A stretch of DNA of 26,779 nt from UHGV virus genome UHGV-1446736, one strand, 5' to 3'. The notes beneath the pieces are model-generated. The model was not told where the DNA came from. It made no database searches and saw only the letters and a program-made list of their open reading frames with translations. This document shows positions 2,284 to 22,041 of this stretch, in pieces. Origin of the DNA: a virus. The position numbers were made by a program, and so were the translations under genes. Every line of letters starts with the position of its first letter. Within the stretch, counting starts at the first letter, position 1.

Positions 2284-2636
2284 TACGCCTCCGATGTAAC
2301 AGTCGTTATTCCATAAAGAGTGTCGATTTCAGCGGAAAACATGACACGTCGGGTCGTGGTATCCACCGTCGTATTGAAAGAGAGGATTGATTTAACGCCC
2401 CGCGTTTCGAGGATGCGCTTACGGATCGCCAGGTTGTAGGTTTCCGGCTTCTGCTTACCGAGTACGGACTGGATCCACGGAGTCCCTTCGGTGGTGTCTA
2501 GAAACCATTGCCCATACCACAATTCAAATCGCGTTTTTACCGCCTGCGCCACGGCCTCCGGTGAGTTAATCAGCCAGGTATCATCACCGCTGCCAAAGGT
2601 GTAATCGCCATCGGCGTCTTCACGTCTGTATCGCAT
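2283..2636 (-). CDS. Small baseplate protein (Mu gp46 / gpW-like)
   Basis: 117-aa ORF between the spike and baseplate J genes, translationally coupled to both. Confidence 0.45.
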   Translation of the reverse strand: MRYRREDADGDYTFGSGDDTWLINSPEAVAQAVKTRFELWYGQWFLDTTEGTPWIQSVLGKQKPETYNLAIRKRILETRGVKSILSFNTTVDTTTRRVMFSAEIDTLYGITTVTSEA

Positions 2637-3388
2637 CAGTTTACTCCGTCGGTATTGCTTCCACCGCGCTGAACACCACCATGAGTGTGCGTATCATCGA
2701 TTAGCTTGCCGTTAGCCTTCACGCTACCCAAAAACTCAACAGCACCAGTGATTTTTGAAGCCACACCAGAAACAACAGACCCCACCATGCCCCCCATCCA
2801 GGTTAACAGGCCATGAATGGTTACTTTCTCAGAAAAATCAGCCAGAGGGGCAACCACATCAAGCCCCCCCGGAGCGACAATTTTAATTTTCCTGGTATCA
2901 GGATTAAGCTCAAAATAGGTGCTGCCGTCGTCACTACGCAACTGTGTGGCACTGGTATTAATACCGCTAATCTTCCTTGCCTGCGACTGGGGACCGACAA
3001 TACAAAACGCATCCGATAAATCATGCATTCTGTCATCGACCGGCTCCTGTATCCCGCCACTCTGCCACCAGAAATCAATACAACGATCGGCAAAAATCAC
3101 CAAACATTCATCACCGGCTTTAGCTGGGAACGTTAGCGTACATCCTCCGCCGCGTGGGAATACCACTGGCACATCCACCAGCAATGGGTAATTTTTGGTA
3201 ATGCGGTTGCCGTCATTATCCTTTTCAACCGAACGGATAGCAGGCTGCACAACTGCCGTCACCGCATCAGGATCGAATGACTGAATAATGCCAGGCAAGG
3301 CGACACGGATCTGGTTCTTTGTTGTTTCCCGTTCAGATTTGAATGTTTCGGCAAGGTCGCCGCTGCGGGTCTGGTCAGATACTGCCAT
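2636..3388 (-). CDS. Baseplate central spike protein (P2 gpV / Mu gp45-like)
   Basis: 250-aa ORF with a C-terminal HTHGG (His-x-His) stretch like the apex motif of gpV-type spikes; a GGAG ribosome-binding site lies about 9 nt before the ATG at 3388. Confidence 0.5.
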   Translation of the reverse strand: MAVSDQTRSGDLAETFKSERETTKNQIRVALPGIIQSFDPDAVTAVVQPAIRSVEKDNDGNRITKNYPLLVDVPVVFPRGGGCTLTFPAKAGDECLVIFADRCIDFWWQSGGIQEPVDDRMHDLSDAFCIVGPQSQARKISGINTSATQLRSDDGSTYFELNPDTRKIKIVAPGGLDVVAPLADFSEKVTIHGLLTWMGGMVGSVVSGVASKITGAVEFLGSVKANGKLIDDTHTHGGVQRGGSNTDGVN

Positions 3389-3404
3389 TTAGTAGGCTCC
3401 AGAA

Positions 3405-3432
3405 AGCAAAAAACCCGCCGGATGGCGGGTTC
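3405..3432 (-). terminator. Rho-independent terminator closing the cargo island
   Basis: Plus strand reads aaaaaa-cccgcc-ggat-ggcggg-tt; on the minus-strand RNA this is a 6-bp GC stem with a 4-nt loop followed by UUUUUU. It lies 20-45 nt downstream of the 123-aa gene stop at 3451. Confidence 0.65.
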
Positions 3433-3450
3433 GTGGTAAATAGTGACTTT

Positions 3451-3822
3451 TTATGAAATCCGTTTAAAAAAATGCTGCGCGGTTAATAATGATTCCCTGG
3501 CAACGTCAGCATTTATCTTGGAGTCAGATAAGCGATAGTCGGCTTCATTCCGCGCTTGTCTCATTTGGCGGAGATCGTATGCAAGTATTTTTAATCTTGC
3601 AGGAGGTATTTCTTCCTTAGGTATGCCCATCCTACCTTGCATGTAGTTGATTAAATTAGCATGGTGATTATGTTCTACAGAGGGGACATGCTTCAGAGCC
3701 TCGCCAGCACGATGAAACATAGCATAGTAGGCTCGCGATACGGCATTACGATAACCAACTTCTTCGTCCAGAGTTAAACAATGTTCACTTGAACGCAAAA
3801 AATCAAAACTCTGAATAGTCAT
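3451..3822 (-). CDS. Hypothetical 123-aa protein, second gene of the AT-rich two-gene cassette (possibly a HEPN-like helical domain, speculative)
   Basis: ATG at 3822 preceded by AAGGA; it overlaps the last 20 nt of the upstream 258-aa gene; AT-rich codon usage unlike the flanking tail genes. Segments AYYAMFHRAGEAL and RQARNEADY loosely recall HEPN-type proteins, but this is unverified. Confidence 0.6.
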   Translation of the reverse strand: MTIQSFDFLRSSEHCLTLDEEVGYRNAVSRAYYAMFHRAGEALKHVPSVEHNHHANLINYMQGRMGIPKEEIPPARLKILAYDLRQMRQARNEADYRLSDSKINADVARESLLTAQHFFKRIS

Positions 3823-4579
3823 AAGTTTCCTTCGTATGGGACTCCCTTAAAACCGAGAAACGAGCAGTCATTTCACAGTCGTCTAACCTTGACTCAGAAC
3901 ATATCCTTTCAGCCAAATCAAAATTCATCAAAACGATATCTTCCGGAGTAGCTTTCTCCACTTGCACGAGATAATCACCGCCCATAGAGCTGAAAATTCC
4001 CAAGCTACCGGGAATAAGTTTACGTTCTTCAAGGATCGAATGAGTGATGTCCCCAAGCAATCTAAACTGCTCAGGTGTACAAACTTTTGCCTCGTAACAT
4101 CCTTTAACACCATCGATAAGCTCACGCATATAGGCTTCAGCTCCGTACTTGTCATCGTTTTCTGACAGTAAACGACAGTGCCATTCCATGTATTTCTGGA
4201 TTGCCGCTAGGTCACCAACCCGATAAGATTCCGCGGCAGCAAGCATAGTCAACATTTTCCCGCCAAACGAATCAGCAAGTTGATAAATAATTTCATGTAA
4301 CTGGCGGTAGTGATGTCGTTTGAAAAGGAAAGCAGCGAAATTCTTTGCAATAGTGATGTTGCCCATTTTCAGATGCTTATGAAAATGTTCATAGGCTAGA
4401 TCATCTTCACCATTTAAAGCATAAGCAAAACCAACCGCGCTAACATCGTTGCCTTCAGTGCTGGATGAATAATTGCGTAAAACGTAACGATAAGTGAACT
4501 CATCTATCGAAGCATTTTCTTCAAGCATCGCCCCGAACTGGATAACATAGTTACTGGATGCTTTAGCTGGTGTAGCCAT
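3803..4579 (-). CDS. Hypothetical 258-aa protein, first gene of the AT-rich two-gene cassette
   Basis: The ORF track starts at 4603 on a TTG; the first ATG is at 4579 (MATPAKASSNYV...) with AAGGA 5 nt upstream. No signal peptide or motif I recognise; AT-rich. Confidence 0.6.
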   Translation of the reverse strand: MATPAKASSNYVIQFGAMLEENASIDEFTYRYVLRNYSSSTEGNDVSAVGFAYALNGEDDLAYEHFHKHLKMGNITIAKNFAAFLFKRHHYRQLHEIIYQLADSFGGKMLTMLAAAESYRVGDLAAIQKYMEWHCRLLSENDDKYGAEAYMRELIDGVKGCYEAKVCTPEQFRLLGDITHSILEERKLIPGSLGIFSSMGGDYLVQVEKATPEDIVLMNFDLAERICSESRLDDCEMTARFSVLRESHTKETYDYSEF

Positions 4580-4624
4580 AATAATCCTTAACCCCAGAAT
4601 CAACTGCCTGAAATTGATGTCAGA

Positions 4625-4660
4625 AATGGATTATAGCTTTACTGATTAACCTTTTTACAC
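4625..4660 (-). promoter_or_regulatory. Candidate sigma70 promoter for the two-gene cassette
   Basis: A perfect TATAAT on the minus strand (plus 4630-4635) about 45 nt upstream of the 258-aa gene ATG; the -35 region (TGTAAA-like) is weak. Confidence 0.25.
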
Positions 4661-4971
4661 GGGAAAGACCCGATGATTTTCGGCGCATCCATGCTGTTCT
4701 GCAGCAGCTGGACGTTCAGGAAAGCTTTTCCGTTACGTTTCACAAACTCAAAGCCGTAATTGTTACCATCACGGGAAGGCATCAGGCCCATGTCCATTTT
4801 CATGTTTGAATAGTCACCATCTTTTCCCAGAAATTTTATCTTCTGTGATGTGACAGTTTCACCGTTAATAACAGTCATTCCGTCACCGGTCATCGTGTAG
4901 TTGCCGCACTGAATTGCAGCCATCGCCGGAGCAGTAACCATCATAACTAACGCCAAACATAACCGTTTCAT
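4639..4971 (-). CDS. Small secreted/periplasmic protein of unknown function (signal peptide)
   Basis: ATG at 4971 (MKRLCLALVMMVTAPAMAA...) gives a classic signal peptide with an AxA cleavage site; the mature protein is about 90 aa with two Cys. An AGAGGG ribosome-binding site precedes it and its start overlaps the hub gene stop (TAATG). Confidence 0.55.
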   Translation of the reverse strand: MKRLCLALVMMVTAPAMAAIQCGNYTMTGDGMTVINGETVTSQKIKFLGKDGDYSNMKMDMGLMPSRDGNNYGFEFVKRNGKAFLNVQLLQNSMDAPKIIGSFPCKKVNQ

Positions 4972-6035
4972 TAAAGCCCTCTTTCCCTCGCTGATGAGGA
5001 AACAAGATCCGCCGCACCACGCGCTTCGCACATCATATCCATGTACCACGCCTGGCCCCTTGTATCGCCAGTGTACATAATCCCGCGCACAATATAAACG
5101 CCATCCGTTGCGATGCTGGCAGGCTGCGATGTGGTGCCGCTTAGCGTAATATTTCCGTCCGTGTTCTGGTCGGTGATCTGCCCACCGGCCATCGCGATAT
5201 CGTTGTTCGACAACGCGGTGCGATATACAGAAGCCTGATCCAGCTGAATGAGCCCGTTAACCCGGATGTTCGGATTAATGAGCGCACGGACGTTTACGCC
5301 GTTACCGATGGTCTGCTGCGGCATGCCAATAAGCCCGGTAGCACTGTTGAGCACAATCGCTTCGTGAACATATTCGTTATTCGCCACCATCTGGCGTTGA
5401 CCATCCACGAATTGCCATGTTGCGCCACATTGCCCGGCTACGTTATCCATAAGATGCCGCGTCATGCCAAAGAGCACCCGCCCCCGGGGGAATACAGTCG
5501 CAGGCATTTCAGGCGTCAGGCCTTCGGTCGCGCCTTTGGCTTCAAAGTCTTTCATCAGCGCACGGTTTACATCAGCGACCGTGTAACCGGCAGCCAGCGT
5601 CTGTGAGGTTATACTGGTGGCAAAAGCCAGATCAGTATCTGCTGCCTGAATCAGGACGTAGGTATCAACCGGACTGTCTTTTCCTGTGACCGAGTAGCGA
5701 ATTTCACCGCTGAAAATCAGTCCGTAGTTGCGGCCATCTCTCTGGCCCACGTCCGCCGCGTCAACTTCCCGCACGGTCCCTACGTCGCTTGCTGACACCT
5801 CCGGCGCGATACCGTCGTAACCGGCAATCAGACGCACTTTCGAAAATTCCTGCCCGGTGATTCGGTTCACAGTATCTGCCGAGAGGTTATAAATTTTGAT
5901 AGTCCCTACCCGGGACGCGCTGCTGATGTTGAACCAGTCGATCGTAAAGGTGACTTTGAAATCACTTAGCTCAATTCCCTGACCGTTCCCGTCCACAAGC
6001 TGCAGCTCGAAATGTCTCATCCAGTTCTGTGACAT
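4971..6035 (-). CDS. Baseplate hub-like tail protein (Mu gpP / P2 gpD-like)
   Basis: 354-aa ORF placed after the tape measure and two small tail genes and before the spike, as expected for a hub protein; assignment by synteny. Confidence 0.45.
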   Translation of the reverse strand: MSQNWMRHFELQLVDGNGQGIELSDFKVTFTIDWFNISSASRVGTIKIYNLSADTVNRITGQEFSKVRLIAGYDGIAPEVSASDVGTVREVDAADVGQRDGRNYGLIFSGEIRYSVTGKDSPVDTYVLIQAADTDLAFATSITSQTLAAGYTVADVNRALMKDFEAKGATEGLTPEMPATVFPRGRVLFGMTRHLMDNVAGQCGATWQFVDGQRQMVANNEYVHEAIVLNSATGLIGMPQQTIGNGVNVRALINPNIRVNGLIQLDQASVYRTALSNNDIAMAGGQITDQNTDGNITLSGTTSQPASIATDGVYIVRGIMYTGDTRGQAWYMDMMCEARGAADLVSSSARERGL

Positions 6036-6340: not shown

Positions 6341-6927
6341 TATCCGCCTCCCAGTAATGACGCCACGTTACCCGTGATGCTTTTCAGCAGTGAAGTATCT
6401 GGAGGCTTTGTGGTTTTGTTGCCGCTGTTCTGTACCGCCGACGTGCTGGCCCCTTCCTTCATGTTGGTTTTATCAGCAACGGTGATCTGCTGTGTCCGGG
6501 AGATAAGGACCTCCCTCAGGGTGAGGACGGCGGACAGGACGTTTTCGGTTGTCTTGTCCGTCGTCACTTCCAGCGCCCGGATCAACATGTTGCTGTACAG
6601 CCGTTTACCGGTTACCACATCGAAGGGGATACGGCTTTCCTGCAGATCCAGTAGCTCCTGATACGTCTGCTGAGGACTCAGGCCGAGCAGGCTGGTAGCC
6701 GTCAGATTACTGGCAAAATCCAGCAATGCGCCGCCACCGGCGAAACCAACCTCCATCACCACTTCTGACGGTTTTTTATAGGCATGATCAGCGACAGCGG
6801 CCCCGACCTCTACCGGATGCTCTGTTATTTCAAGCATATCTGTATGCTTCTCTGAAATAACAACACTGGGAACAATCATTCCTATTTTTCTGCTCTGCTG
6901 ATGAAAAAGTGTAGAGAGAATATCCAC
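6340..6927 (-). CDS. Hypothetical tail protein (195 aa)
   Basis: ORF immediately downstream of the tape measure gene, ATGA-coupled to its neighbours. Confidence 0.4.
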   Translation of the reverse strand: MDILSTLFHQQSRKIGMIVPSVVISEKHTDMLEITEHPVEVGAAVADHAYKKPSEVVMEVGFAGGGALLDFASNLTATSLLGLSPQQTYQELLDLQESRIPFDVVTGKRLYSNMLIRALEVTTDKTTENVLSAVLTLREVLISRTQQITVADKTNMKEGASTSAVQNSGNKTTKPPDTSLLKSITGNVASLLGGG

Positions 6928-8915
6928 TAACCCACCCTCACCTGATTACTTCGCATGACCTGAGCATTTGCAGACTGTTGCCGACGTGCAACCTCATTAC
7001 CGACAGCGTGCGGATCTCCGCCACCGTAAATGTGGTAAGTATTTTGCTGGTTAACCTCTGTCATTTTGCCACTAATTCCCGCCACGGCAGCCTTATTAAT
7101 CAGCTCTCGAGAATAGATATTTCTTCCATTTTCATGCTGGATAATGCTGCTCATCAATGCTGACATGGTTTGCGGATCGCTCATATTCAGGGCAGCCCGG
7201 GGATCCACTCCCAGTCGTTGCGATACAGCCCTGATATACGCAGTTGTGTTGTTATTATCAGACGCAGGTGCCCAGGTAGAGATAATTTTCTCCACACTGT
7301 TTATTCCCCGTCCGGCGTACAGCATTAACTGACGAGCAAGAGCTCGTAATCCATCAAAAGCAGTTTCAAATCTGGCAAATCGCCCGCCCGGGCGTTCAAG
7401 AGAAGCCCCTGCCTGACCAGCAAAATTAAGGTTTCCCGGATTGTTATTCCGTTCTCCTCGTTTCGTAGCCTGTGCATATTGTTCCGGCTCATCATCACCA
7501 AACCAGCCGCGTACCGTCCGGCCCACACTGCGGGGATCGAATCCCCAGTGCTCTTTAATCCAGTCGGCAGTACTGTTAGCGCTGTCTGTAACCATCGGCA
7601 TCGCTGACGGATTTTCGCTGCCCTGATTAAGTATCTGTTTGCCGATGCTGACGGCATCAGCCCAGCGGCCATCTTTGATAGCGTTGAGCAGGTCGGCGAT
7701 CATGTTCAGCATTTTGCTGAATTCGCCCATCTGGTCGATGAAGTTGCTGAAATCCCACTTCAGGGACCATGATTTGGGGTCAATATTGAGCAGTTTCGCC
7801 AGCGCTTTCGCCAGTTCATTAACAGACCCTTTCAGGTCACGAACCATCTTCAGCGCGGCATCGACCTCCGGCTTCCACTTGCCCCAGTCAATCAGGCTGT
7901 CGCCGCCTTCCTTCCAGGTCTGATAGTCCTCCCACAGAAGGGCAATCCCCGCCGCCAGCGCGGTAATGAGGCCAATCGGCGACATCCAGAACGTACTGTT
8001 CAGAATGCGCAGCGCAATCGTCAGCGCGCCAAACAGCGAGATGAGCTCCCGCGTTTGCTTATCCAGCGATTGCCACCAGGTGATGAGGCCTGATGTTCCT
8101 TCAATCAGTCTGAAGAACAGCCGCCCGATAATATCCCCGAGCGCCAGAATGCCTTTTATGGCTTTCGTCAGGGTCTGCTCGATACGCGGGAAGTTGTCCA
8201 GGATATGGCGGCGCAGAGTGTCCAGCGAACCCGCAAGCCCACCCGCAAGATTAGAGCCGATTTTGTCACGGGCCATGCCTGCCATCGCGCCAAACTCACG
8301 CAGGGAGGTCATAAATTTGTTGGAGCTTCTGGCCGCCTCGTCAGCATTGAAGCCGATAGCTTTCGCCATTGCGCTGTACTGCCCGGAGAAACCACCCACA
8401 CCCCGGCGCATCGCCATAAGGGTATTTTCGTCAATGCCCAGCATCTGCGCATACTGGTTAGCCCGGTAATACGGCATGCCGCTGAGCTTCTGTCCTACAC
8501 CTGTAAAAATAGCGGCCATGTCACGCATGTTACCGCTGGCATCCCGTGTCTGTACCCCCAGACGATTCAGAAATCCCTCAGCCCCGGGGTTATTACGGAT
8601 AAAACGGGCAAGGCTCTCCAGTGACCCGCGCGCAGCGTCCACGCTGCCGCCAACCTGCGAAACCGCATAGCCAATAGACTGAATTCCCTGGACTGTCGCG
8701 CCGGTGCGCTGTGACGCCCAGTAAAGATTATCCAGACCAGAGGCGATCTTAGCCGTGAAGGCCACCACGGACAGCGCAGCTCCTTCAACAGCCAGCCCCA
8801 TTTTGATGACATTTGCAGTTGTACCGGCGAGGACAGAACCGAACTTTTTCGCTCCTGCATCATCCACACTGAAGCCAAGCGAGACGAGGAAATCTTTAAT
8901 AGTTTCAGCGTTCAT
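6927..8915 (-). CDS. Tail tape measure protein
   Basis: Long ORF (about 660 aa) with Ala/Gly-rich helical N-terminal part and a hydrophobic central stretch (LISLFGALTIALRILNSTFWMSPIGLITALAAGIALLW), downstream of the tail chaperone. The probable start is the ATG at 8915 (MNAETIKDF) with GAGAGG upstream; the track start at 8936 is a TTG. Confidence 0.75.
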   Translation of the reverse strand: MNAETIKDFLVSLGFSVDDAGAKKFGSVLAGTTANVIKMGLAVEGAALSVVAFTAKIASGLDNLYWASQRTGATVQGIQSIGYAVSQVGGSVDAARGSLESLARFIRNNPGAEGFLNRLGVQTRDASGNMRDMAAIFTGVGQKLSGMPYYRANQYAQMLGIDENTLMAMRRGVGGFSGQYSAMAKAIGFNADEAARSSNKFMTSLREFGAMAGMARDKIGSNLAGGLAGSLDTLRRHILDNFPRIEQTLTKAIKGILALGDIIGRLFFRLIEGTSGLITWWQSLDKQTRELISLFGALTIALRILNSTFWMSPIGLITALAAGIALLWEDYQTWKEGGDSLIDWGKWKPEVDAALKMVRDLKGSVNELAKALAKLLNIDPKSWSLKWDFSNFIDQMGEFSKMLNMIADLLNAIKDGRWADAVSIGKQILNQGSENPSAMPMVTDSANSTADWIKEHWGFDPRSVGRTVRGWFGDDEPEQYAQATKRGERNNNPGNLNFAGQAGASLERPGGRFARFETAFDGLRALARQLMLYAGRGINSVEKIISTWAPASDNNNTTAYIRAVSQRLGVDPRAALNMSDPQTMSALMSSIIQHENGRNIYSRELINKAAVAGISGKMTEVNQQNTYHIYGGGDPHAVGNEVARRQQSANAQVMRSNQVRVG

Positions 8916-9092
8916 TATCCTCTCTCCATTTCTCAATGCGCCGCTGGTTATCCGCTTTTACCGCCAGATGGTCATTCAAGAGAGCAATGTCGTACAAATC
9001 GACAGAGCCATCTTTAAGTGCTGTATAAGGAATTAACCCGGCGTCAACCGGATTGAGAAGGTAGGACAGCCCGTCCGGCAGGCTGTTAAACG

Positions 9093-9545
9093 TCAGCCCT
9101 GTTGCAGGCTCTGCGTCGTGCTGGTAAGGGGTGTAGGCAAAAAATTTCCCAGCGAATCGGCGACCACCCGCGCCACCAGATGAAGCATGACCAGCAGGTC
9201 AATATCATCAAACATCAGTTCGCCCCGGGTAAATACCGGCACCCATCCGTCCATATGACGCCGCGACACCACCGCAAGACAGGGATGAATAATCGCATCG
9301 GTGTCATCTTCGGTCAGGGAAGACAGTTCCTCAGCGATACGCGGGAGCATGGTTTCAAACACCGGTTTTAACTGCTCGAATTTCACGGTGTCGATTTTGC
9401 CGTCAGCAGGCAAACGGGAGCGAATGCTCCCGAAATCTGACATCATTCCCGCCAGTACCGGCAGAAGTTTGCGGGTCACTTTCAGCTGGTCAAAAACGCT
9501 GAGTTTTGCCACGCGATATTTCACGCCTTTGATTTCGAATTCCAT
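9093..9545 (-). CDS. Tail assembly chaperone (gpG-like)
   Basis: 150-aa acidic ORF between the tube and tape measure genes, the conserved chaperone position. Confidence 0.5.
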   Translation of the reverse strand: MEFEIKGVKYRVAKLSVFDQLKVTRKLLPVLAGMMSDFGSIRSRLPADGKIDTVKFEQLKPVFETMLPRIAEELSSLTEDDTDAIIHPCLAVVSRRHMDGWVPVFTRGELMFDDIDLLVMLHLVARVVADSLGNFLPTPLTSTTQSLQQG

Positions 9546-21109: not shown

Positions 21110-21547
21110 TCATCGAAGGCATTGCGTCCTGATGTATTCCTGCAAGTAGTTAACCTGCGCGGTTATCCTGTCGATTCCACTTTGGAGACGGTAATAATTG
21201 AGTTCAGCATCTGCTGTAAGTCTTGGGATTTCTCCATCGCCCATGCTGCTGGCTCCGGTCGTTGACTTTGCACAGGTGGCGGCGACTTGCAGGCGCTTAC
21301 GCCCAGCAGAAACATCAGCACGGAGGCTTTCGATAGTCGCGTTAGCATCAGCAAGCTCCTTTGTGTATCTGGCGTCGAGTTCTGCTACATCACGTTGACG
21401 CTTCTGCATATCAGCGATGATGGATGTGGCTTTATTGCGCTGCTCTTTGTAGGTCATGGCGTTATCACGGTAATGATTAACAGCCCATGACAGGCAGACG
21501 ATGATGCAGATAACCAGAGCGGAGATAATCGCGGTTACTCTACTCAT
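21110..21547 (-). CDS. Rz: Rz inner-membrane spanin (i-spanin)
   Basis: N-terminus [29 protein letters not shown] matches lambda Rz as I recall it; the ATG overlaps the endolysin stop (ATGA). Confidence 0.85.
21163..21348 (-). CDS. Rz1: Rz1 outer-membrane lipoprotein spanin (o-spanin), embedded in Rz in the +1 frame
   Basis: ORF wholly inside Rz in a different frame; ATG at 21348 gives [20 protein letters not shown] with a lipobox (LLGVSAC) followed by a Pro-rich mature part ([11 protein letters not shown]). Confidence 0.75.
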
Positions 21548-22041
21548 TGTTGCCCCCACAAACAGACTTCACGCTCAATCTCACGGCGAGTCATCAGCCC
21601 TTTCCATTGCTTACCGCCAGCGTATGTCCAGCGCCGTAGCTGATCACATGCGCCTTTGATATCGCCCTGGTTTATTTTGCGAAGAAGCGTCGATGTTCTG
21701 AAATTTCCAGCACCAACGTTGTAAACGAACGAGTAAAGAGCGCCGCGCGTTGTTTCCGGTATATCGACTTTGATGTACGGGTTAATTTGTCTGGCGACAG
21801 TGGCAAGGTCTTTATTCAGGAGGGCTTTGCATTCTGCTTCGGTATACGTTTTACCGAGCATAATGTCTTTTCCGGTATGCCCGTAACATACAGTCCATAC
21901 GCCAACAATATCTTTATATGGTATGTAGCTGACACCTTCCAGACCATCGTCACCACTCGGACCAGTGATAAGCACAGACGCTATGGCAACAGCCCCACCA
22001 CCAATAGCAGCTGCAACAGCCTTGCGTAATGATGGCGACAT
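21544..22041 (-). CDS. R: SAR endolysin (signal-anchor-release lysozyme, phage 21 R-like)
   Basis: 165 aa; N-terminal Gly/Ala-rich weak transmembrane segment ([20 protein letters not shown]) followed by a T4-lysozyme-like catalytic region; closely matches phage 21 R as I recall it. Confidence 0.88.

Follow-up and report, generated by a model that had tools for sequence, protein, structure and literature searches.

A predicted periplasmic protein encoded at the baseplate hub junction of SEN34-like prophages: an accessory gene with a possible role in phage exclusion

The hub-spike region of a SEN34-like prophage

The window, by which we mean the whole stretch of DNA analysed (26,779 nucleotides of UHGV virus genome UHGV-1446736), is a SEN34-like prophage whose tail module is of the type found in SEN34-like (Brunovirus) temperate myoviruses. 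The region considered here matches the chromosome of E. coli SCU-301 at 100% identity, and the copy of the small protein described below is likewise 100% identical there. Parts of the region were found in 353 of 5,426 complete E. coli genomes, and members of the small-protein family in about 350 of the same 5,426. SEN34 itself was described as combining lambda-like regulatory genes with a contractile tail (PMC5261728), and the type III effector gene sopE is carried on SEN34-like prophages in nearly all Salmonella Paratyphi B PG1 isolates (PMC11632088).

The genes of the region lie on the minus strand, in the order tape measure, Dit-like protein, plug (Pam3_gp18), baseplate hub, small gene, a 266-aa ORF, a HEPN-like 123-aa ORF, a hairpin, baseplate spike, a 117-aa ORF, baseplate J, and a DUF2612 wedge protein. 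The hub gene (4971..6035, minus strand, 354 aa) matches phrog_196, 'baseplate hub', with E=5e-89, and gives a weak Pfam E217_GP41 match. The spike gene (2636..3388, minus strand, 250 aa), which carries the Pfam spike N-terminal domain (E=1.6e-43) and a GpV Apex motif, forms the downstream border of the hub-spike insertion site, and the 117-aa ORF that follows it is named 'contractile injection system sheath initiator' in the annotation of a close relative. The annotation of ON470579 (Escherichia phage vB_EcoM-606R2, locus L001) presents the hub as two ORFs, at 2937-3575 and 3582-4001; tblastn aligned all 354 hub residues at 99% identity to 2937-4001 of this locus, and the split is probably a sequencing or annotation problem.

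The small gene occupies 4639..4971 on the minus strand, with its stop codon at 4639-4641, and encodes a predicted exported protein of 110 aa that belongs to PHROG 3443. Its full translation is MKRLCLALVMMVTAPAMAAIQCGNYTMTGDGMTVINGETVTSQKIKFLGKDGDYSNMKMDMGLMPSRDGNNYGFEFVKRNGKAFLNVQLLQNSMDAPKIIGSFPCKKVNQ, which begins with MKRLCLALVMMVTAPAMAAIQCG and ends with FPCKKVNQ before the stop. The mechanical ORF list also contains a longer version of the gene, starting with GTG (4639-5049), but this is a mechanical extension, and the conserved protein starts at the ATG at 4971-4969. As originally predicted, this start overlaps the stop of the hub gene. The coupling junction, read from the sequence at 4969..4989 (minus strand), contains the hub stop codon TAA (4973-4971) and the small-gene ATG sharing one base, in the arrangement TAATG (4973-4969). 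A Shine-Dalgarno-like AGAGGG is located at 4982-4977, 5 nt before the ATG, and a second element of this kind, GAGGG, at 4989-4985, both within the final hub codons.

When the upstream DNA was scanned for promoters, no sigma-70-like site was found for the small gene on its own strand, and promoter-like sites in the region were no commoner than in shuffled sequence. The sole strong terminator-like hairpin of the region (3432-3411, minus strand) follows the HEPN-like cargo gene. Neither a promoter nor a terminator of its own was detected, and the small gene most likely rides on the late tail transcript. One weak promoter-like site (GTGAAA-18-TAAAAT, 4833-4862, minus strand) lies inside the small gene and points to the cargo ORFs; it could drive the cargo apart from the late operon, although sites like it occur at the frequency of shuffled sequence.

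Between the small gene and the spike lies a variable cargo slot (3411..4603, minus strand), which holds two ORFs and the intrinsic-terminator-like hairpin, and which is context rather than part of the small gene. The 266-aa cargo ORF (3803-4603, minus strand) belongs to phrog_17809 and has a very weak match to the TPR-containing PilW model. The 123-aa ORF (3451-3822, minus strand), which overlaps it, belongs to phrog_5176, and its match to Pfam HEPN (E=1e-3) is below the cut-off. Diverged pairs, of 243-272 aa and 126-154 aa (HEPN), occupy the same slot in L005, L009, L044, L064 and L101, and the pair is a candidate, from sequence, for a two-gene defence or toxin-antitoxin module missing from PADLOC. 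The slot is hypervariable: about 50 different contents were found among 108 loci, more than 12 kinds when only loci with a small gene matching that of the window at 95% identity or above are counted, and different PHROGs in each sequenced phage. Other contents included a T5orf172-like protein (judged by eye) and further exported proteins. In 7 loci nothing occupies the slot, and only 28-73 nt separate the small gene from the spike gene, in the order hub-small-spike. Since the position of the small gene is constant and the content behind it changes so freely, we regard it as a fixed gene that opens a cargo hotspot without itself belonging to the cargo.

Two other parts of the prophage bear on what follows. 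The tape measure gene (6927-8936, minus strand) has the RefSeq name 'lytic transglycosylase'; no Pfam SLT match was found in the window's tape measure, whereas the relatives in L127 and L128 do carry SLT. The C-terminal part of the window's protein contains the motif ERNNNPGNLNF, and in L008 and L009 tape-measure identity, elsewhere about 91%, is down to 57-66% at the end, so that this C-terminus seems, on sequence comparison, to have been swapped between relatives. The lysis genes, a GH24 phage lysozyme (21544-22041) and an Rz-type spanin (21110-21559), both on the minus strand, are located 16 kb from the small gene.

Family, conserved position and accessory status of the small gene

The small protein matches phrog_3443 with E=3.3e-53, its residues 3-109 aligning to profile positions 6-114 of 115. 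A 99%-identical orthologue, WP_000824896, has the RefSeq name 'STY1065/STY2022 family phage-derived protein', a name taken from two S. Typhi CT18 prophage genes, and both of these prophages carry the family. Members are also present in many prophages of Klebsiella, Salmonella, Yersinia, Photorhabdus and Serratia. An indexed search returned 410 family clusters at 90% identity, all in Enterobacterales, and an exhaustive search only 48 clusters at 50% identity, so that the family is narrow. The small gene is real, given the 410 clusters, the PHROG match, and a dN/dS of 0.01-0.06 for the mature part of the protein within the window's allele type, a value denoting very strong purifying selection. 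Profile searches of Pfam, NCBIfam and PADLOC (threshold for PADLOC, E<=0.1) with the small protein and its distant relatives returned nothing, and a profile search of PDB sequences with the small protein gave 0 matches at E<=10. Our literature search on STY1065/STY2022, on SEN34 and on tail-module exclusion proteins found no work on the family.

Conservation of position was evaluated in 165 loci with a family member, which were collected from annotated phages, GTDB genomes, IMG/VR (the best 80 of 349 loci) and assembly look-ups. The loci were scanned with alignment A1 and single proteins, as the wide alignment A2 was too diverse. In 151 of the 162 loci with enough upstream DNA, the 3' end of a hub gene was located no more than 54 nt upstream of the small gene, with a median distance of 6 nt between HMM envelope ends in these 151. 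The distance from hub stop to small-gene start was -11 to +5 nt in most related loci, typically as a TAATG or ATGA overlap, and the overlapping arrangement is retained in relatives down to ∼35% identity. In three loci beyond these 151, a 292-aa lipoprotein-fusion version likewise adjoins the hub. Such a 292-aa version, on a metagenome contig (L127, 6001-6879), starts right after the hub stop and has a lipoprotein signal (LSGC), an unassigned N-terminal domain of 200 residues and the barrel at its C-terminus.

Outgroup phages lack the gene. Hub homologues were found in 134 phage records, and only 20 of the 134 have the small protein, all of them with a hub at least 50% identical to that of the window. 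In Providencia PSTCR3 and Bordetella IFTN9, whose hubs are 38% and 33% identical, respectively, the end of the hub gene directly overlaps the spike gene, with no small gene present; in Burkholderia BgManors32, which also lacks it, only an opposite-strand ORF lies between hub and spike. Since these outgroup phages share the baseplate gene order and lack the gene, the same baseplate assembles without the small protein. The proposed search for relatives among baseplate assembly proteins was run, and profile, PDB-sequence and structure searches returned no match to any baseplate or structural family. Outgroup absence, together with the signal peptide and cysteine pair described below, makes a virion or assembly role unlikely. 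It is a well-supported reading of these comparisons that the small gene is an add-on of the lineage, a non-structural accessory that has been kept welded to the hub gene.

This accessory differs from a classic moron in the Juhala/Hendrix sense, which is defined by its own promoter and terminator (PMC3594210), since the small gene has neither. It is absent from close collinear relatives (PSTCR3, IFTN9 and BgManors32), as expected of a moron, yet it is constant within the enterobacterial lineage. Its base composition was originally described as AT-rich in codon usage, like the adjacent cargo, and this description holds in part. Overall GC is indeed low in the small gene (0.447, compared with 0.545 in the hub and 0.417-0.419 in the two cargo ORFs), but its GC3 of 0.541 fits the tail genes (0.465-0.634; hub, 0.611) and not the cargo (0.355-0.397). 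Because GC3 is within the tail-gene range, the low GC must come from codon positions 1 and 2, and appears as an effect of the many K, N, M, F and I residues in the protein. Small-gene GC is below hub GC in most related loci, and low GC is therefore a property of the family rather than a sign of recent import.

Predicted export and fold, and exchange of the small gene

The first 18 codons (4918..4971, minus strand; MKRLCLALVMMVTAPAMA) are predicted to encode a signal peptide that is not of the lipoprotein type. K2 and R3 are followed by a 12-residue hydrophobic core (LCLALVMMVTAP) and by AMA, with predicted cleavage between AMA and the next A. The remaining 92 aa (4642..4917, minus strand) contain exactly two cysteines, C22 (4906-4908) and C105 (4657-4659), and C5 is the cysteine of the signal peptide. 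The original description of a periplasmic protein of about 90 mature residues with two cysteines was thus physically correct, the Sec-like N-terminus being a prediction. We examined export in relatives with a heuristic based on hydropathy and K/R charge at the N-terminus; 87 of 92 unique relatives passed for hydrophobic core and K/R, and the five that failed are start-codon or contig-end artefacts. C22 and C105 are invariant across the family, including members at ∼30% identity. At the first mature cysteine the lipobox [LVI][ASTVI][GAS]C was not found, the sequence being A-I-Q-C; Q precedes the conserved cysteine in 69 of 89 relatives, and it is this residue before C22 that breaks the lipobox. 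That the protein is Sec-exported, soluble and periplasmic is well supported as a prediction from the N-terminus, and the invariant cysteine pair with the AXA cleavage motif points to oxidative folding outside the cytoplasm.

A model of the mature domain built with a 48-sequence alignment was all-beta, with pLDDT 90.8 and pTM 0.79. Seven strands of at least 3 residues were called, the best structural matches were 8-stranded barrels, and the mature part is predicted from the model to be an 8-stranded up-and-down beta-barrel. Because the invariant C22 and C105 fall in the first and last strands of the modelled barrel, we infer that they may form a periplasmic disulfide closing it. The structure search found no specific structural relative. 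Avidins and the PliC/MliC/PhiA lysozyme inhibitors share only the fold class with the small protein, at 4-12% identity, and the likeness to lysozyme inhibitors is one of shared topology only, since PliC/MliC-type matches score below avidins and designed barrels. The small protein matched neither Pfam MliC nor any immunity family. Avidin-type biotin binding was considered separately and rejected, as the small protein has no Trp.

The dN/dS of the mature part equals that of the hub or lies below it, and in several lineages dN of the mature part is 3-5 times below that of the adjacent hub. The signal peptide changes faster, with a dN 5-8 times as high as in the mature part. The 119 unique mature sequences of the family fall into 38 types at 80% identity. 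These allele types are, as far as alignments can tell, exchanged by recombination with breakpoints in the 3' end of the hub gene. In L013, the hub is 69-85% identical to that of the window, while the last 44 hub residues are 98% and the small gene 86% identical; conversely, the hubs in L008 and L019 are 95-100% identical, with 81-88% identity in the last 44 residues and 62-63% in the small gene. The final ∼15 hub residues (after CEAR) change together with the small-gene allele type, and the pairing of hub-tail and small-gene types is almost one-to-one (20 tail types and 21 small-gene types). Such pairing is no proof of functional pairing, because the two are physically adjacent and linkage can explain it.

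Partners elsewhere in the tail module were also considered. Co-variation of the small gene with the body of the hub was rejected, as the hubs of L008, L017 and L023 are 96-100% identical up to residue 310 and their small genes 62-64%. Co-variation with the spike was rejected from L009, where the small gene is 99% identical and the spike 67%, and tracking of the tape-measure C-terminus was ruled out from the same locus, where the tape-measure end is 66% identical. Inhibition of a lytic-transglycosylase domain of the tape measure was rejected as unsupported, there being no Pfam SLT match in the window's tape measure.

Two loci contain arrays of the gene, and none was found in the window or in the 163 others; other loci with multiple hits are single genes broken by IS elements or frameshifts. 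In Serratia aquatilis (L033, NZ_CP173186, 5440-10328), seven intact or nearly intact paralogues and one frameshifted copy extend from hub to spike, together with an IS transposase (8307-9515, minus strand). The C-terminal halves of these paralogues are nearly identical and the N-terminal halves differ, a pattern that suggests gene conversion combined with diversification. In Pseudescherichia vulneris (L037, NZ_BBMZ01000043, 15-2849), we found four tandem cassettes, each consisting of a hub C-terminal fragment of ∼65 residues and a diverged small gene, the second small gene being truncated; this repeat was assembled on a short contig of only 5.8 kb. In the downstream cassettes the start overlaps the fragment stop in two of three; in the other, 10 nt lie between them and the small gene is truncated.

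Copies were also found apart from prophages. Two Mixta genomes (L125, 6001-6327, and L130, 5001-5357), one of them of Mixta calida, each carry a stand-alone copy between yciY and yciI, next to tonB, with no phage genes nearby; at this site E. coli K-12 has kch. The two Mixta copies are 58% identical, although the cls proteins encoded alongside belong to a single cluster at 90%. The stand-alone copy is present on 166 Mixta calida contigs and appears to be fixed in this species. Relatives of the Mixta subtype are still located after the hub in Cronobacter and Phytobacter prophages, and Erwinia typographi has one family copy in an island near an hcp gene. In the literature searched, neither the arrays of hub-fragment cassettes nor the Mixta copies have been described.

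Possible roles and comparison with known systems

The reading we rank first, at a probability of roughly 40%, is that the small protein is produced along with the tail proteins as a soluble binder in the periplasm and keeps related contractile-tailed phages from entering. Under this model, ribosomes finishing the hub would re-initiate on the small gene, so that its product, as is expected of the hub, would appear late and at a low level. Sec would export the precursor, with cleavage after AMA, and DsbA would link C22 with C105, so that a disulfide would hold the first strand of the barrel to the last. This 10-kDa protein would then bind a target in the cell envelope, either the incoming tail tip or an envelope component that the tip needs, and related contractile-tailed phages would be stopped at some periplasmic stage of delivering their genome. 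Both the infected cell and cells retaining the gene would gain protection against superinfection.

Several observations place exclusion ahead of the other readings. The gene is accessory, it exists in many exchangeable allele types and in arrays, host chromosomes capture stand-alone copies that diverge fast, and it heads a hotspot of the defence type (∼50 cargo sets, including the HEPN pairs). There are also precedents for envelope proteins of this kind encoded among tail genes, in HK97 gp15 (PMC3594210) and T5 Llp (PMC9586334). The reading is weakened by the lack of a promoter of its own, by the very strong purifying selection within types, and by the rarity of arrays. Of the original suggestion of a lysogenic-conversion or exclusion factor rather than a virion part, the denial of a virion role is supported, as outgroups lack the gene, and exclusion is plausible; classic lysogenic conversion is argued against because no promoter for the small gene was found.

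A different explanation, which we consider rather unlikely, is that the protein is a lytic-cycle helper for the phage itself, acting in the periplasm of the producing cell without protecting lysogens. It might tune the envelope or the timing of lysis, or stop virions from firing into sibling cells or debris, as in the 'lytic conversion' of T5 Llp. The missing promoter is consistent with such a role, as are the start/stop overlap with a late structural gene, which is kept in nearly all loci, the place of the small gene inside the operon in the 7 hub-small-spike loci with an empty slot, and purifying selection as strong as that on the hub; Llp has, moreover, been called a lytic conversion protein (PMC9586334). 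Against it, the stand-alone Mixta copies without phage genes imply a use for the protein apart from any lytic cycle, outgroup phages have the same tail but no such gene, and the lysis genes are 16 kb away.

If usefulness to the host is taken as the starting point, the protein might instead be a lysogenic-conversion factor whose benefit has nothing to do with phages, such as a ligand binder or an immunity-like inhibitor of a toxin or enzyme acting in the periplasm (for example, a type VI effector, a bacteriocin or a muramidase). We judge this improbable. The lysozyme inhibitors among the structural matches reflect topology only and rank below avidins and designed barrels, neither Pfam MliC nor any immunity family was matched, and the hcp neighbourhood is a single case. 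A general immunity gene would also not be expected to show a near-obligate link to one tail-gene junction (151 of 162 loci).

A more elaborate form of exclusion would make the variable C-terminal tail of the hub and the barrel a cognate pair, in which the barrel would recognise the matching incoming tail tip in the periplasm and jam it, and so provide a polymorphic self/non-self exclusion system; new cassettes would arrive through recombination within the conserved 3' end of the hub gene, and those they displace would persist as arrays. We regard this scheme as highly doubtful. Least credible of all is a part in baseplate assembly or as a minor component of the virion, with the hydrophobic N-terminus being a membrane anchor or insertion segment rather than a cleaved signal: the gene's fixed hub-spike position, coupling to the hub and strong conservation would fit, but the invariant cysteine pair and AXA motif point to folding outside the cytoplasm, outgroup phages with the same baseplate genes lack the gene, no structural protein is homologous to it, and multi-copy arrays and stand-alone chromosomal copies would make no sense for a stoichiometric part.

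Should the small protein indeed block genome delivery from the periplasm, it would represent a new soluble type of exclusion factor against contractile tails, a variant of the envelope-located exclusion proteins that is barrel-shaped, coupled to the hub and exchanged as cassettes, and it would bear on phage-therapy host range in Enterobacterales. Were it a lytic helper, the product of a tail operon would be sent to the periplasm, which would be unusual. The small gene also marks the start of a very active hub-spike cargo hotspot, which is useful for finding new defence genes.

The closest known likeness is to the PHROG 3443 (STY1065/STY2022) family itself, with which the small protein shares its length, signal peptide, cysteine pair and position behind the hub; this family has no Pfam entry and no solved structure. 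Among proteins of established function, T4 Spackle is a periplasmic inhibitor of the gp5 tail lysozyme, a protein of ∼10 kDa whose signal peptide is cleaved off and which counters, in the periplasm, the tail tip of a superinfecting myovirus. Spackle, however, is helical and targets the lysozyme domain, whereas in the 250-aa spike of the window an N-terminal spike domain and an apex motif were all that was recognised. The arrays recall the orphan toxin-tip/immunity cassettes that are kept downstream of cdiA or rhs genes. The P. vulneris locus is alike in repeating, four times, a 3' fragment of a large upstream gene with a small gene, the small genes being diverged, and the final residues of the hub likewise change with small-gene type. 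In contrast to those cassettes, the repeated hub fragment is a conserved structural C-terminus and not a toxin domain, and among the 165 loci there is only this one such locus, along with the one plain array in S. aquatilis.

HK97 gp15 is a superinfection exclusion moron located inside a tail operon, with bacterial homologues outside prophages (PMC3594210). It is an inner-membrane protein of the YebO family that the prophage expresses from a gene with a promoter and terminator of its own (PMC3594210), whereas the small protein is a predicted soluble exported barrel, coupled to the hub without a promoter of its own, and the two have no sequence similarity. They are nevertheless alike in being small, envelope-located (by prediction in the present case), accessory, encoded within tail genes and absent from related phages, and the action of gp15 depends on features of the incoming tail (PMC3594210). 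T5 Llp is a periplasmic exclusion protein whose gene is next to the receptor-binding gene (PMC9586334). Llp and Cor are lipid-anchored Cys+1 lipoproteins encoded beside the receptor-binding protein gene, and bind FhuA (PMC9586334); the small protein differs in having no lipobox and in being encoded next to the hub rather than the fibre genes. Of the known systems, Llp and Cor nonetheless offer a likeness in being small and periplasm-facing, with an intramolecular disulfide, a tail-gene neighbour, expression during lytic growth, and a block that is exerted from the periplasmic side (PMC9586334).
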